A DNA stretch of 64,000 nucleotides from SAR202 cluster bacterium Io17-Chloro-G2 (GTDB lineage: Bacteria; Chloroflexota; Dehalococcoidia; Lucifugimonadales; UBA3495), in contig MUCP01000010.1 in the NCBI GenBank assembly GCA_002816875.1, positions 2,254-66,253 of the forward strand, given 5' to 3'. The position numbers were made by a program, and so were the translations under genes. The notes beneath the pieces are model-generated. The model was not told where the DNA came from, searched no databases, and saw only the letters and a list, made by a program, of their open reading frames with translations. Below, piece by piece: positions 56,162 to 63,050 of this stretch. Numbering within the stretch: the stretch's first letter is position 1; each line of letters opens with the position of its first letter.

Positions 56162-56307
56162 GAGACCACCTCCAATCTTCCTTGAGGAAATACCAGACGG
56201 CCCAGGCGTGGCTGGGCTCTTGCCTGGCGATGGGGCGTAGTATAACATTGGGAAGCTTTTTCAGAGGAGATTTTTCTCCAAGCAACCCTTGGTCCAAAGG
56301 GAGCGAG

Positions 56308-56787
56308 ATGAATCAACAGATTCGCCTGACAGTCAATGGGACCGAACACCGGTCGGAGGTCCCTGCCCGCCGCTTACTGGTCGATTTTCTTCGTTATGAC
56401 CTGGGTCTGACCGGCACCAAAGAAGGCTGTAGCGTGGGGGTTTGCGGGGCCTGCACCGTTTTGATCGACGGTGAGATGGCCGCTTCCTGCATCACCCTTG
56501 CGGCAGCGGTGGACGGCGCCCAGATAACCACCATTGAGGGGATCGCCCAGGATGGAAAGTTGCACCCGGTGCAGCAGGCGTTCATCGACCACGGCGGTTT
56601 CCAGTGCGGTATTTGCACGCCGGGACAGGTGATGGCGGCCAAAGCGCTGTTGGACGAGAATCCCAACCCCACTGAAGATGAGATCAAAGCGTGGATGATG
56701 GGGAATCTTTGCCGTTGCACCGGATATTACGGCATTTTGAATTCGGTGGCCGCCGCCGCGGGTTCTACCCCCGGCTCTAATGCGTAA
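56308..56787 (+). CDS. (2Fe-2S)-binding small subunit of a molybdenum hydroxylase (CoxS/XdhC-type)
   Basis: C..G.CGAC cluster (GCSVGVCGACTV) and C.C..GQ...C.C (QCGICTPGQ...CRCTGY). Confidence 0.85.
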   Translation: MNQQIRLTVNGTEHRSEVPARRLLVDFLRYDLGLTGTKEGCSVGVCGACTVLIDGEMAASCITLAAAVDGAQITTIEGIAQDGKLHPVQQAFIDHGGFQCGICTPGQVMAAKALLDENPNPTEDEIKAWMMGNLCRCTGYYGILNSVAAAAGSTPGSNA

Positions 56788-56796
56788 GGAGGCTTG

Positions 56797-57690
56797 ATGA
56801 ACGACTTTGAATTTCACAGCCCCTCCAGCCTGGAAGAAGCCTTCGAGCTATTGGACCGGTATGGCGATGACGCCAGGGTGATGGCCGGCGGCACCGGCGT
56901 GGTGTTGCAGATGAAGCAGCGGCTGTCCCAACCGGGGCATGTCGTCGGTCTAAGAAAGGTCCCTGGCCTGAATTCCATCGGCCTGACTGGCAACGGTAGC
57001 GCCGGGGGAATAGAAGTTGGCGCCATGGTGACCCACAGGACCCTGGAAAACGACCCCACGGTAGTCCAAATTCTGCCCATGGTGGCCGCCACCTACCATC
57101 ACGTGGCGACCCCCCGGATCCGTTCCATGGCCACGGTGGGCGGCGGTTTGGTTCACGGAGACCCCAATGAAGACCCGCCTCCTACGTTGATCGCCCTGGG
57201 CGCTTTGGTGGTGTTGACCTCCTCCTCGGGCCGGCGGGAAATGCCCGTTGAAGAACTTTTCGTTGACTACTATGAGACCGATGTCCAACCAGGGGAGATC
57301 CTTACCAGCGTCACCATTCCGCAACAGCCGCCGGGCTCCGGCTCTGCCTATCTGAAATTCCTGCCCCGTACCGCTGACGACTACGCGACGGTCTCCGTCG
57401 CGGCTATAGTCACCCGGGGAAATGGCAACACCTGTAGCGACGTCAAGATCGTTTTGGGGGCCGTGGGCATGACCCCGGTACATGCCACCCAGGCCGAGTC
57501 TTTGCTGCGGGGCCAAACCTTGACTCCAGAGAACATCGCGGCTTGCGCCTCAGCGGTCAAAGAGGTGGTTGACCCGTTGGACGATTTTAGGGGGTCAGCC
57601 GAATACAAACGGGATATGGCCGAGGTTTTCACCCGCCGGGCAATAGAACAAGCTATTCAACAGACCTTGGAAAACAGGCCGGCGGCATGA
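56797..57690 (+). CDS. FAD-binding medium subunit of a molybdenum hydroxylase (CoxM-type)
   Basis: ...MAGGTGVVLQMK... FAD motif and a CO_deh_flav_C-like C-terminus (FRGSAEYKRDMA). AAGGAGG RBS. Confidence 0.85.
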   Translation: MNDFEFHSPSSLEEAFELLDRYGDDARVMAGGTGVVLQMKQRLSQPGHVVGLRKVPGLNSIGLTGNGSAGGIEVGAMVTHRTLENDPTVVQILPMVAATYHHVATPRIRSMATVGGGLVHGDPNEDPPPTLIALGALVVLTSSSGRREMPVEELFVDYYETDVQPGEILTSVTIPQQPPGSGSAYLKFLPRTADDYATVSVAAIVTRGNGNTCSDVKIVLGAVGMTPVHATQAESLLRGQTLTPENIAACASAVKEVVDPLDDFRGSAEYKRDMAEVFTRRAIEQAIQQTLENRPAA

Positions 57691-57727
57691 GAACGGCTGC
57701 CGCAAAGCCGAGCGCGAGGCCGGGTCT

Positions 57728-58189
57728 ATGAGGCTGGAAAACAGTTGTCTGATCCCGGCTGGCCGCTCTGCCGCTTGGGAACTGTTGATGGATATTCCCC
57801 AGGCGGCCGCCTGCGTCCCCGGCCTACAGGAAATCGTTCCCGATGGTGAGAACCAGTATCGCGCTAGGTTGGAGTCCCGCGTGGGGCCCATGAGATTTAG
57901 CTTTTCCGGTACCGTCCTTGTGGTGGAGAAGGATGAGTCCAAGGCAGAGGCGCGGTTTCAAGTAGAGGCGTCCGACCCCAAGGTTGGCGGTACCATCAAG
58001 GCTGACATGACGATGCGGCTGATAGATTGCGCCCCAGGGCAGAGCGAGCTTTCCATAGTCACCGAAACCGCCTTTATGGGCAAGCTGGGTGAACTGGGCC
58101 AGCCCCTGATGCACCGCAAAGCAAAGAGCACCATGGAAGGGTTCGCCCACAACCTGGTGCAATTGCTTCAGCAGCAGGCCGGCAACTAA
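57728..58189 (+). CDS. SRPBCC-fold CoxG-like protein
   Basis: ...W.LL.D....A.C.PG... N-terminus and ...GKL..LGQPLM..KAK......F..NL tail, typical of CoxG. Confidence 0.7.
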   Translation: MRLENSCLIPAGRSAAWELLMDIPQAAACVPGLQEIVPDGENQYRARLESRVGPMRFSFSGTVLVVEKDESKAEARFQVEASDPKVGGTIKADMTMRLIDCAPGQSELSIVTETAFMGKLGELGQPLMHRKAKSTMEGFAHNLVQLLQQQAGN

Positions 58190-58667
58190 CCGCAACAACA
58201 CGCGTTGAACCGCGTGGGTTGATGTTAGCTACGGCCCATTCTCCCTGGGTCGCTCCCTCCCATCGAATCCCAGGGCAATCATGTCCAAAAACTCCCCGGC
58301 TATGGTTGCCTATTGCCATCTTAATCAGAGAACCCCGTTCCCCTGGCTGACTTCAAACCTCGGATCAACCCCAGATATTCCCTATTGCACCCCATTGCAC
58401 CCCGCGCTTGTAAATCCACCAATACCCAGGAAAATCCTCGGCTGCCGGAGTGCTAACACTTTGGACCGATGGAAAACACTGCGTATAAACAGGGGACTAA
58501 CTCCTTGCTGGAATTGCTCGCCCTACACCCAAGATAGGTGGCCGTCCCGTGGGATAACCCTAGGGCCGAACCTAAACTTACTAGAACATGTGGTGGGGGG
58601 TGAGAAAACCTTGCACGGGGGTGGCAAATTTCGACATCCATCCATCGCGGTGCGTTTACCGATTACC

Positions 58668-58697
58668 AAGGGGCACACAGTAACCAGGGGCACACAG
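58668..58697 (+). promoter_or_regulatory. Direct repeat AGGGGCACACAG x2 (17-bp periodicity), 29-58 nt upstream of the archaellin start; candidate operator/promoter element
   Basis: aaggggcacacag (58668-58680) and caggggcacacag (58685-58697), followed by GATAAT (58695-58700) and a GAGAGGGA RBS. Confidence 0.3.
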
Positions 58698-58725
58698 ATA
58701 ATTCATATCGAGAGGGAAAAGCGAA

Positions 58726-59337
58726 ATGAACAACGGAATGGTTAACTTTTGGGCTAGGTTAAAGGCCTGGCTCCCGGACCAGAGGGGCATCACCGGGTTG
58801 GAAACGGCAATCGTGCTGATTGCCTTCGTTGTGGTTTCATCGGTGTTTGCATTCGCCGCTCTGTCCACCGGCCTCTTCTCCAGTGACAAAGCCAAGGAGA
58901 CAATCTCGGCTGGACTGGCTGAGACGAGAGGTACCTTGGAGCAGAAAGGCTCGGTGATCCTGACGTCCAGCACCACCGGCACGTCGGGGGTGATCTCCCA
59001 GATAGAGTTCCAGGTATCCAACGCCGCCGCCGGCGAGCCCATCGACCTGACGCCGGGCAATACCATCATCCGGTACAGCGACAAGAACCAGGTCAAGAAC
59101 CTGACCACCACGGCCGACTTTACCGCGACCAACGTCGCCGCCTTCGGCGACAGTGACAACCTACTGGAAACCGGTGAGATCTTCGAGATCAAGCTGATCG
59201 ATCTAAATTCCAGATTGGACACGGCACTGGGGCCCAGCACTGAGTTCACCATCGAAGTCGTCCCACCCCGTGGCGCCGTGCTGTTCGTCAGCAGGAGAAC
59301 TCCAGTGTCGACGGAAACCAAAGACGTGCTGGATTGA
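58726..59337 (+). CDS. arlB: Archaellin (archaeal-type flagellin, FlaB/ArlB) with a class III signal peptide
   Basis: ...LPDQRG/ITGLETAIVLIAFVVVSSVFAFAAL... matches the archaeal flagellin N-terminal domain. The C-terminal beta-rich part (...DNLLETGEIFEIKL...EFTIEVVPPRGAVL...) follows the archaellin pattern. 203 aa. Confidence 0.8.
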   Translation: MNNGMVNFWARLKAWLPDQRGITGLETAIVLIAFVVVSSVFAFAALSTGLFSSDKAKETISAGLAETRGTLEQKGSVILTSSTTGTSGVISQIEFQVSNAAAGEPIDLTPGNTIIRYSDKNQVKNLTTTADFTATNVAAFGDSDNLLETGEIFEIKLIDLNSRLDTALGPSTEFTIEVVPPRGAVLFVSRRTPVSTETKDVLD

Positions 59338-59393: not shown

Positions 59394-59547
59394 AGGCCAC
59401 CCATCGATAGAAAGATCTGTGGCGCGGCTCGCAGCCGTCAAAGCAGCGCACTGGCCTAAGAGCGGCCCCGGTGGCGGAGACACCCTGTGAGGTGCCTGAC
59501 ACCGGGGGTTGCTTCACTATCAAGACCGCAATGACAGGGAAGCCGCA

Positions 59548-61167
59548 ATGGCCGATGCCGACAGCAGGCTAGAGACCGTAGAGGATGAGCTCAAGGTTCT
59601 AAAGGGGGAGGTGAGGCGAACCCTGGTGGACCTTCGAGCTCTTTTGATGCGTGCTGATTCCCCGATGAACGACGGGTTTATTGGACGCCGGGACGCTTTG
59701 CCGGACCGGGAACCGGAGGATGGGCCCAAGCCGGCCAGGACGGAAATGTCTCAAGTGATCCAACAAGAAACTGGGCCAGCGCTTGCTGCGGCGCCAGCCC
59801 CGGCTCCGGCGCAACCGCCTGCTGCGGCGCCAGCCCCGGCTCCAGTGCAACCCCTGGCCGGAGGACCGGGACAGCCGCCAGTAGGGGGACCCGGGCAACC
59901 TCCGGGAGGGTTATTCCCGCCGGGCTCCGGTCCGCAACAAGGCAGCATTAATTCCCCGGTCATGGGTCCCCCGATAGCCACGCCTAACGGGGAACAAGAG
60001 CGGGCAATGGCCGAACAACAGCGAAGGATGGCTGACCAGGAAAGAAGGATAGCCGAGCAAGACAGGCAGATGGCCGATCTCAGCCGGATGGTTCAAGAAG
60101 GAGCTCAGGCGGCCGAGCAGGCGCCGGGCCAAGACCCGGAGCAGCAGCACAGGTTGGATGAACAACAACGCCAGATCGCCGACCAGAGCCAGCAGATGCC
60201 CGCCATGGACGGCAAGCTAGACGAACAAGGCGGACGCGCTGAAGGCGGCACCCATGGTAATGATGAGGAAAGAGATCATCGGGAACCGGAACAAATCCAG
60301 CAGATAGCCGACCTGAAGGTCCGGGTTGAGGAAGAAGGCCGGTCCACCAGGGAAGCGGTGGCCGAGGCCCAAATAACCAGCCAGCCGCCCAGCCAGCGGA
60401 GGACCGCGGAACCGGAAAATCAAATTGACCCTGACGACGTAGGACCGAAATTAGAGGAAGAAATAGATGAGCCATCTGTCCAAGGCCGGGACGATGAGTC
60501 TGATCGATACCAGGAGAATATACAGACCCCACGCCGGACCGCTGGCCGGCGCGAGGAAATTGCAAACCGGCAACGGGGCCAAAGGACGGGGGGAGGCCGT
60601 GATGTTGGGGGTCTTGGGAACAACGAAGCCTGGGACAAAGAACCGATAGACAAGGAACGCCATCCATCTGGATCCAAACCGGATGGCGTGAAAAGACCCA
60701 GGCCGGTAATAACTGGGAGTAACGATATCGTGGGTAACCACTACCGGAATTCAGGTCATGATGACGTGGAAGATCAGTACCGCGGTGAAAGCGGCAGCCA
60801 TGTCTATGACCAATACCATCAGTTATTCGAAGCCATAGGCGGCGCCGGCGGGGTGGACGATAACGCGGGAAACTCCGCTCCTCTGGACGTGAATCTTCTG
60901 GCGAGTTTGGTGAGGTGGATGACCCTGGCCAAAGGGAGGGTTGGGGAGGCTCGCCTAAAAAGGATATTGGATCTCTATTTAGGGTCTGGCCGAAGCTCGC
61001 CCCAGCTGCGGGAGTTGTTGGTCAGCGTTTCGAGCATGGTAGACACGGTTTCACCCGAAACGCCCCAGGCCGCCCAGGAATGCACTGACTTGCTATCCCA
61101 ACTTCACGGCATTTTGACCGGAGGGCTCCAAATAGCCCAGGTGCCTCAGATCAGCTTGTCTGAGTAG
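59548..61167 (+). CDS. FlaD/E (ArlD/E)-domain protein with a very long low-complexity central region
   Basis: The C-terminal ~100 aa (LDVNLLASLVRWMTLAKGRVGEARLKRILDLYLGSGRSSPQLRELL...) resembles the archaeal FlaD/E domain (W..L....G......L.YY...GWIS pattern). Position between arlB and arlF/G matches euryarchaeal operons. N-terminal coiled coil; A/P- and Q/E/R-rich middle. Confidence 0.5.
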   Translation: MADADSRLETVEDELKVLKGEVRRTLVDLRALLMRADSPMNDGFIGRRDALPDREPEDGPKPARTEMSQVIQQETGPALAAAPAPAPAQPPAAAPAPAPVQPLAGGPGQPPVGGPGQPPGGLFPPGSGPQQGSINSPVMGPPIATPNGEQERAMAEQQRRMADQERRIAEQDRQMADLSRMVQEGAQAAEQAPGQDPEQQHRLDEQQRQIADQSQQMPAMDGKLDEQGGRAEGGTHGNDEERDHREPEQIQQIADLKVRVEEEGRSTREAVAEAQITSQPPSQRRTAEPENQIDPDDVGPKLEEEIDEPSVQGRDDESDRYQENIQTPRRTAGRREEIANRQRGQRTGGGRDVGGLGNNEAWDKEPIDKERHPSGSKPDGVKRPRPVITGSNDIVGNHYRNSGHDDVEDQYRGESGSHVYDQYHQLFEAIGGAGGVDDNAGNSAPLDVNLLASLVRWMTLAKGRVGEARLKRILDLYLGSGRSSPQLRELLVSVSSMVDTVSPETPQAAQECTDLLSQLHGILTGGLQIAQVPQISLSE

Positions 61168-61243: not shown

Positions 61244-61711
61244 ATGGAAAAGGCGATAACCACCTCCCTCATGATCATCGCCAGCATAGTTGCCGCTATG
61301 GCGTTGATCAACGCCGTCATCCCGGCCATGGGCAAGAGCGCCAGCGCCCTGGCGACGGCCAACTCGGCCACGGCCGACCGCATCCGGACTGATATTGAGA
61401 TCATCCATGCCACGGGGGACGACGCCGGCGAAGTAATAACCGTCTGGGTGAAAAACGTCGGCACCAAAAAGATCAATCCCATCAAATCCAGCGATATCAT
61501 CCTGACTACGCCCACCACCGTTGCTTCTCTACCCTATGTCAGCGGTTGCTCCTCAGAATGTTGGGACTACGCCCTGGAAGGGGGTGCAACTGATTGGAGC
61601 CAAGCAGTGACCGTTAAATTCACCCTGAAGACCACGGTTGACACCGGCGTTTACACCGTCACGGTCAGTTCTCCCAACGCCACCAGCGCCAGCGAAGATT
61701 TCAGCGTATAG
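61244..61711 (+). CDS. FlaF/FlaG (ArlF/ArlG)-family protein (ArlF by operon position)
   Basis: Archaellin-like N-terminal helix (AITTSLMIIASIVAAMALINAV) followed by ...ADRIRTDIEIIHA...VWVKNVGTKKI... beta-sandwich pattern. Confidence 0.65.
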   Translation: MEKAITTSLMIIASIVAAMALINAVIPAMGKSASALATANSATADRIRTDIEIIHATGDDAGEVITVWVKNVGTKKINPIKSSDIILTTPTTVASLPYVSGCSSECWDYALEGGATDWSQAVTVKFTLKTTVDTGVYTVTVSSPNATSASEDFSV

Positions 61712-61749: not shown

Positions 61750-62274
61750 ATGAGCATCATAGCGCCTGGAATAATGGTGATCACTGTATTTTTACTGGCG
61801 TCTGCCCTGATGTTTGGCACGTTTCTCACGGCTTCAGCAACTCAGGGAGATTCCTTGAAGGACCTTGCCACGGTCAACACTGCCCAAGCAGGGGACCAGC
61901 TTGATATCGTCAGCGCCGCGGTGGATACGCCCGATACTGGTGACCTGACGGTAACGGTGGATAACACAGGCTCCCGGTCAACGCCGGATTTCAGCCGGAT
62001 GGACGTGATTTTGGAATACATAGACCCTTCTGACAACGCCGTGGTTACATATATCGATTATTCGGCGTCGGCTCCCGGGAACAATGAATGGACCATTCCG
62101 GCGTTGGGAATCACGCCTGATTCTTTCAATCCCATCATGTGGGACCCCGATGAGGTCATCTCCATCGATATCTTGGTTTTCCCCGCGGTGAAGTCCAACA
62201 CTGCCGCCTTGGTGGCGGTGGTGACGCCGTGGGGGATAAGCGATACCTCTGCGGTAACCAATCCCAGTCCCTAG
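61750..62274 (+). CDS. FlaF/FlaG (ArlF/ArlG)-family protein (ArlG by operon position)
   Basis: N-terminal TM helix, ...LDIVSAAVD...LTVTVDNTGSRS..., 174 aa. Paralogous to 7036..7542. Confidence 0.65.
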   Translation: MSIIAPGIMVITVFLLASALMFGTFLTASATQGDSLKDLATVNTAQAGDQLDIVSAAVDTPDTGDLTVTVDNTGSRSTPDFSRMDVILEYIDPSDNAVVTYIDYSASAPGNNEWTIPALGITPDSFNPIMWDPDEVISIDILVFPAVKSNTAALVAVVTPWGISDTSAVTNPSP

Positions 62275-62333: not shown

Positions 62334-63050
62334 ATGACCACTTCGCTTGATGGCACCCGGGTCATATCCACCGGCAGCAAGGAGATCGACAAAAAGATGG
62401 GCGGCGGTATCCCGGTGGGGTCGTTGGTTCTGCTGGAAGGCCAATCCGACGCGGGTAAAAGCGTTCTGTGTCAGCATTTTTCCCATGGAACTCTCAGTTC
62501 CAGTATGTCCTCGGTTTATTACACCACTGAGAATACGGTAAAAAGTCTGGTGTCTCAGATGAGTTCGCTGAACCTGGATGTTACCGACTACTTCCTATGT
62601 GACCGGATGAGGATCTATCCCCTGGACATCGCCTCGTCAGAGGATTCCGACTCTGGGACGGCATTCCGGGTCCTGACCGACCACTTGGACAGTCTGCCCA
62701 GCCGGTTCAACTTGGCGGTCATCGATTCACTCACCGGATTGGTCGCCAAGAGTGATGACCACGCCATCATCGATTTTTTCGCCTCATGCAAAAGGCTGTG
62801 TGACGGCGGACGGACCGTATTGGCGGTGGTCCATTCTTATGCCTTCGATGACCGCATGCTCATTCGAATCAGATCGTTGTGCGATGCCCACCTGGTGATG
62901 AAGATGGAACAGGTGGGAGAGCGGCTGGTCAAGATATTAGAGGTTGCCAAGGTTCGCAACGCCGACCAGAGCACCGGCAACATCGTCAGCTTCGACGTAG
63001 AGCCGGGAATGGGCATGAAGATCATTCCTATAGCAAAGGCCAAGGCATAG
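62334..63050 (+). CDS. arlH: ArlH (FlaH), KaiC/RecA-like archaellum ATP-binding protein
   Basis: STGSKEIDKKMGGGIPVGSLVLLEGQSDAGKS (Walker A), ...LAVIDSLT... (Walker B-like), about 238 aa, immediately upstream of arlI. Confidence 0.8.
   Translation: MTTSLDGTRVISTGSKEIDKKMGGGIPVGSLVLLEGQSDAGKSVLCQHFSHGTLSSSMSSVYYTTENTVKSLVSQMSSLNLDVTDYFLCDRMRIYPLDIASSEDSDSGTAFRVLTDHLDSLPSRFNLAVIDSLTGLVAKSDDHAIIDFFASCKRLCDGGRTVLAVVHSYAFDDRMLIRIRSLCDAHLVMKMEQVGERLVKILEVAKVRNADQSTGNIVSFDVEPGMGMKIIPIAKAKA

Follow-up and report, generated by a model that had tools for sequence, protein, structure and literature searches.

We analyzed a window of 64,000 nucleotides (the whole stretch of DNA under study; contig MUCP01000010.1, positions 2,254 to 66,253 of the forward strand) from the SAR202 cluster bacterium Io17-Chloro-G2, whose genome is a 1.56-Mb metagenome-assembled genome (MAG) that is 56% complete. 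The subject of the analysis is one gene of this window, here called gene X and its product protein X, which lies among genes of the archaellum (arl). Gene X probably corresponds, in Chloroflexota, to the ArlC/D/E proteins of Euryarchaeota, a soluble cytoplasmic component around the ArlH-ArlI motor, and it is a lineage-specific SAR202 form with an unusually long disordered middle. Protein X is soluble, is a constant and co-directional member of its operon, occurs one-to-one with ArlI and has two conserved end modules joined by a plastic linker, the length and composition of which can change greatly.

The order of genes in the window is coxS-coxM-coxG, arlB, X, arlG, arlF, arlH and arlI, and the locus is an arl2-type archaellum operon (arlG-arlF order). 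Among 13 related loci collected from species genomes, all of them Chloroflexota/Dehalococcoidia MAGs, the arrangement arlB-X-arlG-arlF-arlH-arlI is kept in nearly all that have enough sequence, usually with coxG upstream. An earlier note, made from the sequence of the window alone, had read the gene as part of an archaeal-type motor, and the same position in the 13 loci shows it to be a fixed member of the archaellum operon at the ArlCDE/ArlX slot. The best matches of the neighboring proteins are named SAR202, and a search for homologs of ArlH gave SAR202 proteins only. We then used 401 Chloroflexota genomes sampled evenly across the phylum, together with profiles of the C-terminal domain (C-domain) of the family and of ArlI, to examine co-occurrence. 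The same seven genomes, and no others, were matched by both profiles, and in each of the seven the two matches lie on one contig and one strand, 2-4 kb apart; the archaellate genomes in this sample all belong to the class Dehalococcoidia. When metagenomic loci were fetched by means of ArlI, 40 of 80 contained a match to the X family with the hidden Markov model (HMM) of its N-terminal helix (N-helix), that of its C-domain or both, and the remaining 40 mostly had too little DNA upstream of ArlI. Five of these ArlI loci (L076, L078, L079, L060 and L110) carry an open reading frame (ORF) at the X position that the family profiles did not match. The metagenomic loci show two gene orders, arlB-X-arlG-arlF-arlH-arlI and arlB-arlG-arlF-X-arlH-arlI. 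Nine loci (L101, L109, L111, L112, L116, L118, L122, L123 and L124) have the order arlB-arlG-arlF(-arlF)-X-arlH-arlI with an X of 330-374 aa. Among the 13 loci from species genomes, L011 has no arlG and carries X as an in-frame fusion with ArlF (L011:6001-7626, protein P0198).

The ORF of gene X is on the + strand, ends with a stop codon at 61165-61167 and has two candidate starts, TTG at 59509 and ATG at 59548; the ATG is taken as the start, giving 539 aa, because 40 homologs begin with MAD or MAE. Ratios of non-synonymous to synonymous substitution rates (dN/dS) were calculated against the orthologs in L002 and L003 and gave 0.25-0.28 for the whole gene, 0.2 for the N-helix, about 0.12 (0.11-0.13) for the Pro/Ala/Gly tract, 0.21 for a block of heptad repeats, 0.12-0.16 for the C-domain and 0.12-0.24 for the conserved blocks; the highest segment is the charged linker with 0.41-0.44, so that all segments are <0.45. 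Since dN/dS is low in every segment, the entire ORF is coding and constrained, and gene X is under purifying selection in all its segments. The earlier note had named a non-coding ORF as a refutation of its reading; orthologous loci keep the ORF, and dN/dS and conservation together rule out a non-coding reading. About 70% of the length of gene X is low-complexity, and frameshifted or split copies of X exist in several assemblies (L009, L010, L019 and L048), which might suggest a spurious or decaying ORF in low-complexity, GC-rich DNA that stays open by chance. Against the dN/dS of all segments, the strong conservation at both ends of the protein and the hundreds of family members that are always placed in arl clusters, we consider this extremely improbable, and the split copies fall in repeat-rich linkers, which are regions prone to assembly errors. 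An ORF on the - strand (60080-60667) was rejected as a shadow of the GC-rich coding strand.

The family to which protein X belongs, for which there is no Pfam model, is recognized from its sequences as a charged N-terminal helix, a variable linker and a predicted helical C-terminal domain of ~85 aa. Searched against 1.84 billion cluster representatives, a profile of the C-terminal 125 aa (A2) matched 438 proteins (E<=1e-3), and the names sampled from those matches were 'hypothetical protein' of Dehalococcoidales and of SAR202. The N-helix carries the motif L-E-x-E-x-K-x-x-K-G-E-x-[KR]-x-T-L-x-D-x-R...P, derived from 107 members, in which E11, E13, K15, K18, E20, L25 and R29 are 86-94% conserved; conservation as sharp as this suggests that the helix forms a specific interface and is not just any coiled coil. 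In the 22 SAR202-type members, aa 21-30 are 98% identical. Family members in other orders of Dehalococcoidia have 241-320 aa and the ArlI-anchored metagenomic members 185-374 aa. The earlier note had described protein X as a three-part protein, and the description was correct in that the alignment shows conserved blocks (aa 1-45, 145-178 and 415-530) with variable low-complexity stretches between them; the layout is not special to gene X, however, as N-helix, linker and C-domain are the norm across the Chloroflexota family at 185-780 aa. One variant of 427 aa (L022:1426-2709, - strand, G014:C238) occupies the same slot with two tandem C-domains, like archaeal ArlDE fusions; downstream of it lie arlG and an arlF of unusual length (>317 aa). 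In G025 (L026) a transposase insertion has cut short a cluster of the same type.

By composition, protein X is made of five parts (aa 1-45, 46-144, 145-182, 183-414 and 415-539). Every string that the earlier note quoted is present in it, including LETVEDELKVLKGEVRRTLVDLRALL (aa 8-33), AAPAPAPAQPPAAAPAPAPVQP, QHRLDEQQRQIADQ, two copies of GGPGQPP and ERAMAEQ-QRRMADQ-ERRIAEQ-DRQMADL. The second part contains 26% P, 16% A and 15% G, and Tandem Repeats Finder reported 18/36-nt DNA repeats under the Pro/Ala tract at 59775-59856. The 7-residue periodicity seen earlier was borne out by a period-7 signal and by five heptads in a row at aa 152-186 (RAMAEQQ, RRMADQE, RRIAEQD, RQMADLS and RMVQEGA), with a 21-nt period in the underlying DNA at 60007-60060 from the same program. 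Across the SAR202-type members the heptad block has 63-68% identity to the reference, and most of these proteins contain 2-7 copies of the R-x-M-A-E-Q heptad, which is absent in 16 of the 17 shorter Dehalococcoidia-type members, the other one having an isolated match near the N-terminus. The fourth part contains 13% E, 11% Q, 11% G, 11% R and 10% D and has a net charge of -21, and the acidic/charged stretch of the linker (aa 183-444) shows identities to the reference that are mostly <0.2, with insertions and deletions. Protein X has 59 K+R and 91 D+E residues in total and no hydrophobic or transmembrane segment, the maximum Kyte-Doolittle value (window of 19) being 0.97. To compare linkers we measured, in 158 full-length members, the spacer that separates the N-helix (ending at aa 48 in protein X) from the C-domain core (beginning at aa 445). 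The spacer of protein X is 396 aa, which is the 95th percentile; the median is 161 aa for all members, 351 aa for the SAR202-type group and 120 aa (range 68-178) for the ArlI-anchored sample. The unusual length of the linker claimed earlier is supported, but, given the spacer lengths and the distribution of the heptads, only ~240-280 aa of it and the heptad block are specific to the SAR202 lineage.

The relation to ArlD/E depends on the C-domain. The earlier note had called the C-terminus FlaD/E-like, and this holds only as a probable and very remote relation that is reached by way of the ArlI-anchored members, since protein X itself has no significant match to the PF04659 HMM, the outcome that the note had given as one that would refute its reading. 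An alignment with hhalign of the window C-domain profile (A5) to that of 34 ArlI-anchored members (A8) gave 99.6% probability and E 2e-24. Among those 34 members PF04659 is the Pfam family most often matched (4 of 34, best E 0.0011, sub-threshold). In L022, the two-domain variant, the top Pfam match is again a sub-threshold PF04659 match (E 0.06) in which aa 174-220 align to HMM positions 15-61, and in L052 positions 18-65 of the HMM align to aa 170-217; these two, which are the matches with printed coordinates, are in the same register and lie on the conserved W..G..L..Y..G core. Within 51 distant members PF04659 is found at E<=10 in two, again sub-threshold, one of which is probably the L022 variant. 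Because hmmscan scales its E-values by a total of 24,736 models, and PF04659 had been singled out before the scans, the best match corresponds to ~4e-8 per comparison and, by our own calculation, to ~1e-5 when corrected for ~180 family proteins. From these alignments we consider it quite likely that the C-domain is a remote homolog of FlaD/E. The FlaC/D/E proteins are known to be extremely divergent, and FlaX and a thaumarchaeal gene were recognized by HHpred only (Makarova et al. 2016, PMC4858521).

A number of results weigh against this assignment. Protein X, its C-terminal 135 aa and its N-terminus have no match to PF04659 or to any other Pfam family at E<=10, no archaellum model of NCBIfam matches the protein, and all SAR202-type members tested are without a PF04659 or NCBIfam match even at E<=10. 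The gathering score of PF04659 (21 bits) is reached by no family member, and the model was matched by none of 40 relatives and by effectively none of the 401 Chloroflexota genomes. An initial AlphaFold2 (AF2) model, built on 9 sequences, reached a predicted local distance difference test score (pLDDT) of only 57 and was replaced by one from 56 sequences, which predicts a core at aa 445-527 with pLDDT 81-93, three helices of which the first spans ~35 residues, and disordered flanks (pLDDT <50 at aa 415-442). A Foldseek comparison of this core with the PDB found no solved relative (best E 2.1, template-modeling score <=0.32), and PDB sequence searches with two profiles gave no match. The arCOG profiles of a published screen skip the gene between the pilin and ArlG in the Aggregatilineales rows of its source table (PMC12488501), and the binding of ArlH/ArlI and the formation of a ring by protein X are argued by analogy only. 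Elsewhere, short relatives were likewise without a significant Pfam or NCBIfam match, the 51 distant members have no Pfam match at E<=0.01, PF04659 was not found in the 56%-complete genome itself or in any of 10 upstream ORFs scanned from metagenomic ArlI loci, and no archaeal ArlD/E sequences turned up in a scan of viral contigs.

Such results could also be explained if a coiled-coil or disordered scaffold born in the Chloroflexota, and not homologous to the archaeal proteins, had taken the ArlCDE slot after the transfer of the cluster, the PF04659 matches then being chance among small helical domains. All named relatives are from Chloroflexota, Pfam, NCBIfam and the published arCOG screen all lack a match above threshold, and HisKA_3 is matched equally weakly by 3 of the 51 distant members, as this explanation would have it. 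PF04659 alone, however, was predicted beforehand; it recurs in two independent sets of members, on the most conserved core and in one register where coordinates were printed, with a best match whose per-comparison value, before correction, was given above. The slot and the lack of a transmembrane segment also fit ArlD/E in arl2 clusters, where extreme divergence of FlaC/D/E is documented. We therefore regard a bacterial replacement as unlikely.

If gene X is the counterpart of ArlC/D/E, it most likely arrived with the arl2-type cluster from archaea and then diverged past the reach of standard domain models. By analogy with ArlCDE-ArlH of H. volcanii and with crenarchaeal ArlX, the C-domain, the N-helix or both would dock on ArlH/ArlI and oligomerize into a ring, with the linker acting as a flexible spacer. 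SAR202 linkers may have grown to approximately three times the length found in the ArlI-anchored members and gained the conserved heptad helix, which would probably add a coiled-coil contact, either with other copies of the protein or with a partner. The expansion might also, as the earlier note proposed, adapt the motor to a bacterial partner.

The closest known systems agree with this picture to different degrees. ArlX (FlaX) of Thermoproteota has a single N-terminal transmembrane helix and a cytosolic ring-forming domain, the ring being proposed around ArlH/ArlI. Protein X shares with ArlX the slot in arlB-X-arlG-arlF-arlH-arlI and a composition rich in helix and coiled coil, but its N-terminus is a charged amphipathic helix, and the lack of a transmembrane helix rules out an identity with ArlX. 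The proposed ArlX ring around the motor and the binding of ArlH by the ArlCDE proteins, which have no transmembrane segment, are both taken from the literature (PMC8978795). In Euryarchaeota, ArlD and ArlE (FlaD/FlaE, PF04659 Arch_fla_DE) belong to the switch complex ArlCDE (Li et al. 2020, PMC7534055). Protein X resembles them in being soluble, without a transmembrane segment and encoded within an arl operon with arlB, arlF/G, arlH and arlI, in having a C-terminal domain behind a helical N-terminus, in the existence of tandem-domain variants and in the weak PF04659 similarity on the core of its relatives; it differs in that its family has no threshold match to PF04659 and no CheF partner in five genomes, and in its much longer linker. 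Within the phylum, the comparison is with Litorilinea aerophila, the only archaellate bacterium in culture that is known to swim. Its gene FKZ61_RS14885, which occupies the same slot, is labeled arlCDE/ArlDE in the primer table and the legend of Supplementary Fig. 3 of Sivabalasarma et al. (Nat Microbiol 2025, PMC12488501). In its MacSyFinder source table, arCOG matches are given for the pilin, ArlG, ArlF, ArlH, ArlI and ArlJ, and the Aggregatilineales rows skip the gene at this slot, so that the label seems to rest on position and AlphaFold 3 models. The L. aerophila gene and gene X are matched by position (both lie between arlB and arlG, in clusters of the arl2 type with arlG-arlF order, and both come from one phylum), whereas protein X represents the long variant seen in SAR202, with its 396-aa linker and R-x-M-A-E-Q-x block compared to ~120-160 aa in most relatives. 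A paper on the cultivation of SAR202 names flaB and flaGFHIJ only and leaves gene X unmentioned (PMC10444878).

A different role for protein X would be that of a signal-input adaptor, in which the N-helix, the long linker or both capture phosphorylated CheY or a cyclic-nucleotide effector, the functions of CheF and ArlCDE are combined in one protein and the SAR202 expansion adds docking sites. The earlier note had stated that the window has no che genes, which holds for it and also for the 56%-complete MAG, where CheW, methyl-accepting chemotaxis protein (MCP) and CheF were not found; G002, a genome of the same genus with the same gene X, nevertheless has MCP-CheW-CheA. G404 has CheW and MCP, and in G023 a CheA core adjoins the arl genes. 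CheF (PF04283) is absent from G000, G002, G023, G380 and G404, as published, and protein X has no CheF-arch match; the absence of CheF where MCP-CheW-CheA is present would favor an adaptor of this kind, as would a class III cyclase domain in the linker of one subgroup and a cyclic-nucleotide-binding or receiver protein at or beside the slot in some clusters. The layout is also similar to that of bacterial FliM, taken here as a functional analogy with no homology claimed, in its conserved N-terminal peptide, flexible linker and motor-associated or motor-binding domain, and LEDEIKVL of protein X can be compared by eye to LSQxEIDALL of FliM. The difference is that the N-helix is retained without chemotaxis, because G380 (97% complete), which has neither CheW nor MCP, possesses an archaellum and an X-family protein whose N-helix is conserved. 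This weakens the idea of the N-helix as a FliM-type CheY peptide, which was based on the resemblance by eye and was not retained, and it also counts against the adaptor in general; PilZ-type proteins, which the earlier note had proposed to look for, are absent from the five genomes searched. We consider the adaptor role rather improbable. Class III cyclases are present elsewhere in the genome.

Several variants of the slot deserve description in their own right. In SAR202-like clusters, protein P0200 (610 aa; L049:8001-9833 and L050:2931-4763) has a class III adenylate/guanylate cyclase domain inside the X linker (PF00211, E 6e-20, aa 268-426), between a conserved N-helix and a C-domain; its cyclase activity is uncertain because the usual Asn of G-x-x-V-N-x-A-A-R reads Ile by eye. 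A cyclic-nucleotide-binding protein of ~190 aa (PF00027, E 1e-7 to 3e-14) is directly upstream of arlG in L076:849-1442, L078:429-1004 and L079:780-1349, three loci with no X-family match in the little upstream DNA present. In two further loci an enlarged ArlH ORF (369-389 aa) has a response-regulator receiver protein directly upstream (L099:3217-3825 and L121:3003-3512), and an ORF of ~1,050 aa precedes the receiver protein. Finally, in a genome of the same family (L046, G023:C40, 6624-8721 and 8785-11869), a KaiC/ArlH-like gene stands in convergent orientation to arlB, X (interrupted by a single TAG), arlG and arlF, and after it comes a CheA core (H-kinase_dim, HATPase_c and CheW) without Hpt and P2, which suggests from the gene content a rearranged archaellum/chemotaxis junction. 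Because of the cyclase inside the linker of one SAR202-like subgroup and the cyclic-nucleotide-binding or receiver proteins at or beside the slot, the linker of the X family might be imagined as a modular input platform through which a bacterial archaellum is placed under cyclic-nucleotide or CheY control without CheF; we rate this as a long shot. The heptad block and acidic expansion of SAR202 could be docking sites for a cyclic-nucleotide or CheY-type partner.

The features of gene X and of its archaellum neighbors are collected in the table below.

Table. Coordinates (window positions) of gene X, of the parts of protein X and of the neighboring archaellum genes
Feature	Position	Strand	Description and evidence
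Gene X, whole	59548..61167	+	539 aa + stop; probable ArlD/E-like motor protein of the Chloroflexota archaellum, with the long linker of the SAR202 type; ORF, 40 homologs, same slot in 13 loci
N-terminal charged amphipathic helix, aa 1-48 (predicted)	59548..59691	+	Ends in Ser/Asn-Pro motif; best conserved part of protein X
Pro/Ala/Gly-rich low-complexity linker, aa 49-144	59692..59979	+	Composition, DNA repeats, low identity with partial alignment occupancy
Heptad block, aa 145-182	59980..60093	+	Consecutive R-x-[MIV]-A-[ED]-Q-x units; SAR202-type-specific insertion
Long acidic/charged variable linker, aa 183-444	60094..60879	+	Predicted without fixed fold
C-terminal helical domain core, aa 445-527 (predicted)	60880..61128	+	PLDVNLLASLVRW...LHGILTGGL; probably remote FlaD/E-like
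arlB archaellin, upstream neighbor	58726..59337	+	PF01917, E 4e-25
arlG	61244-61711	+	arl2 order with arlF; best NCBIfam ArlG/ArlF matches below cut-off; PF01917, FlaF_Ig-like for the arlG-arlF pair
arlF	61750-62274	+	arl2 order with arlG; best NCBIfam ArlG/ArlF matches below cut-off; PF01917, FlaF_Ig-like for the arlG-arlF pair
arlH	62334-63050	+	NF004723 FlaH, 272.8 bits
arlI, 5' part	63055 to window end (64000)	+	FlaI motor ATPase model, E 2.7e-80

Upstream of arlB, the genes coxS, coxM and coxG (window 56182-58726; also L002-L013 and L046) adjoin the archaellum genes in most SAR202-type loci. The coxG-arlB linkage was found in 9 of the 13 loci, a conserved neighborhood. An ORF of 154 aa in the coxG-arlB spacer (window 58281-58745) shows tblastn similarity in L002 and is frame-broken in L003; these comparisons favor a conserved leader without coding function over a gene.

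Bacterial archaella have reportedly been described between 2023 and 2025, and gene X is a component to be expected in a system known from the literature, rather than a part of a new type, so that for the gene itself our result is mostly confirmatory. It does mean that the 'hypothetical protein' at the ArlCDE slot can now be defined by its N-helix motif and a C-domain profile, with one-to-one occurrence with ArlI in the 401 sampled genomes, while the homology of the family to ArlD/E is only remote. In the SAR202 lineage, which is abundant in the deep ocean, the protein has a conserved heptad helix and an approximately threefold longer linker. The variants that contain a cyclase or are associated with cyclic-nucleotide-binding and receiver proteins suggest where regulatory input might enter the motor, and they are more interesting leads than gene X itself.

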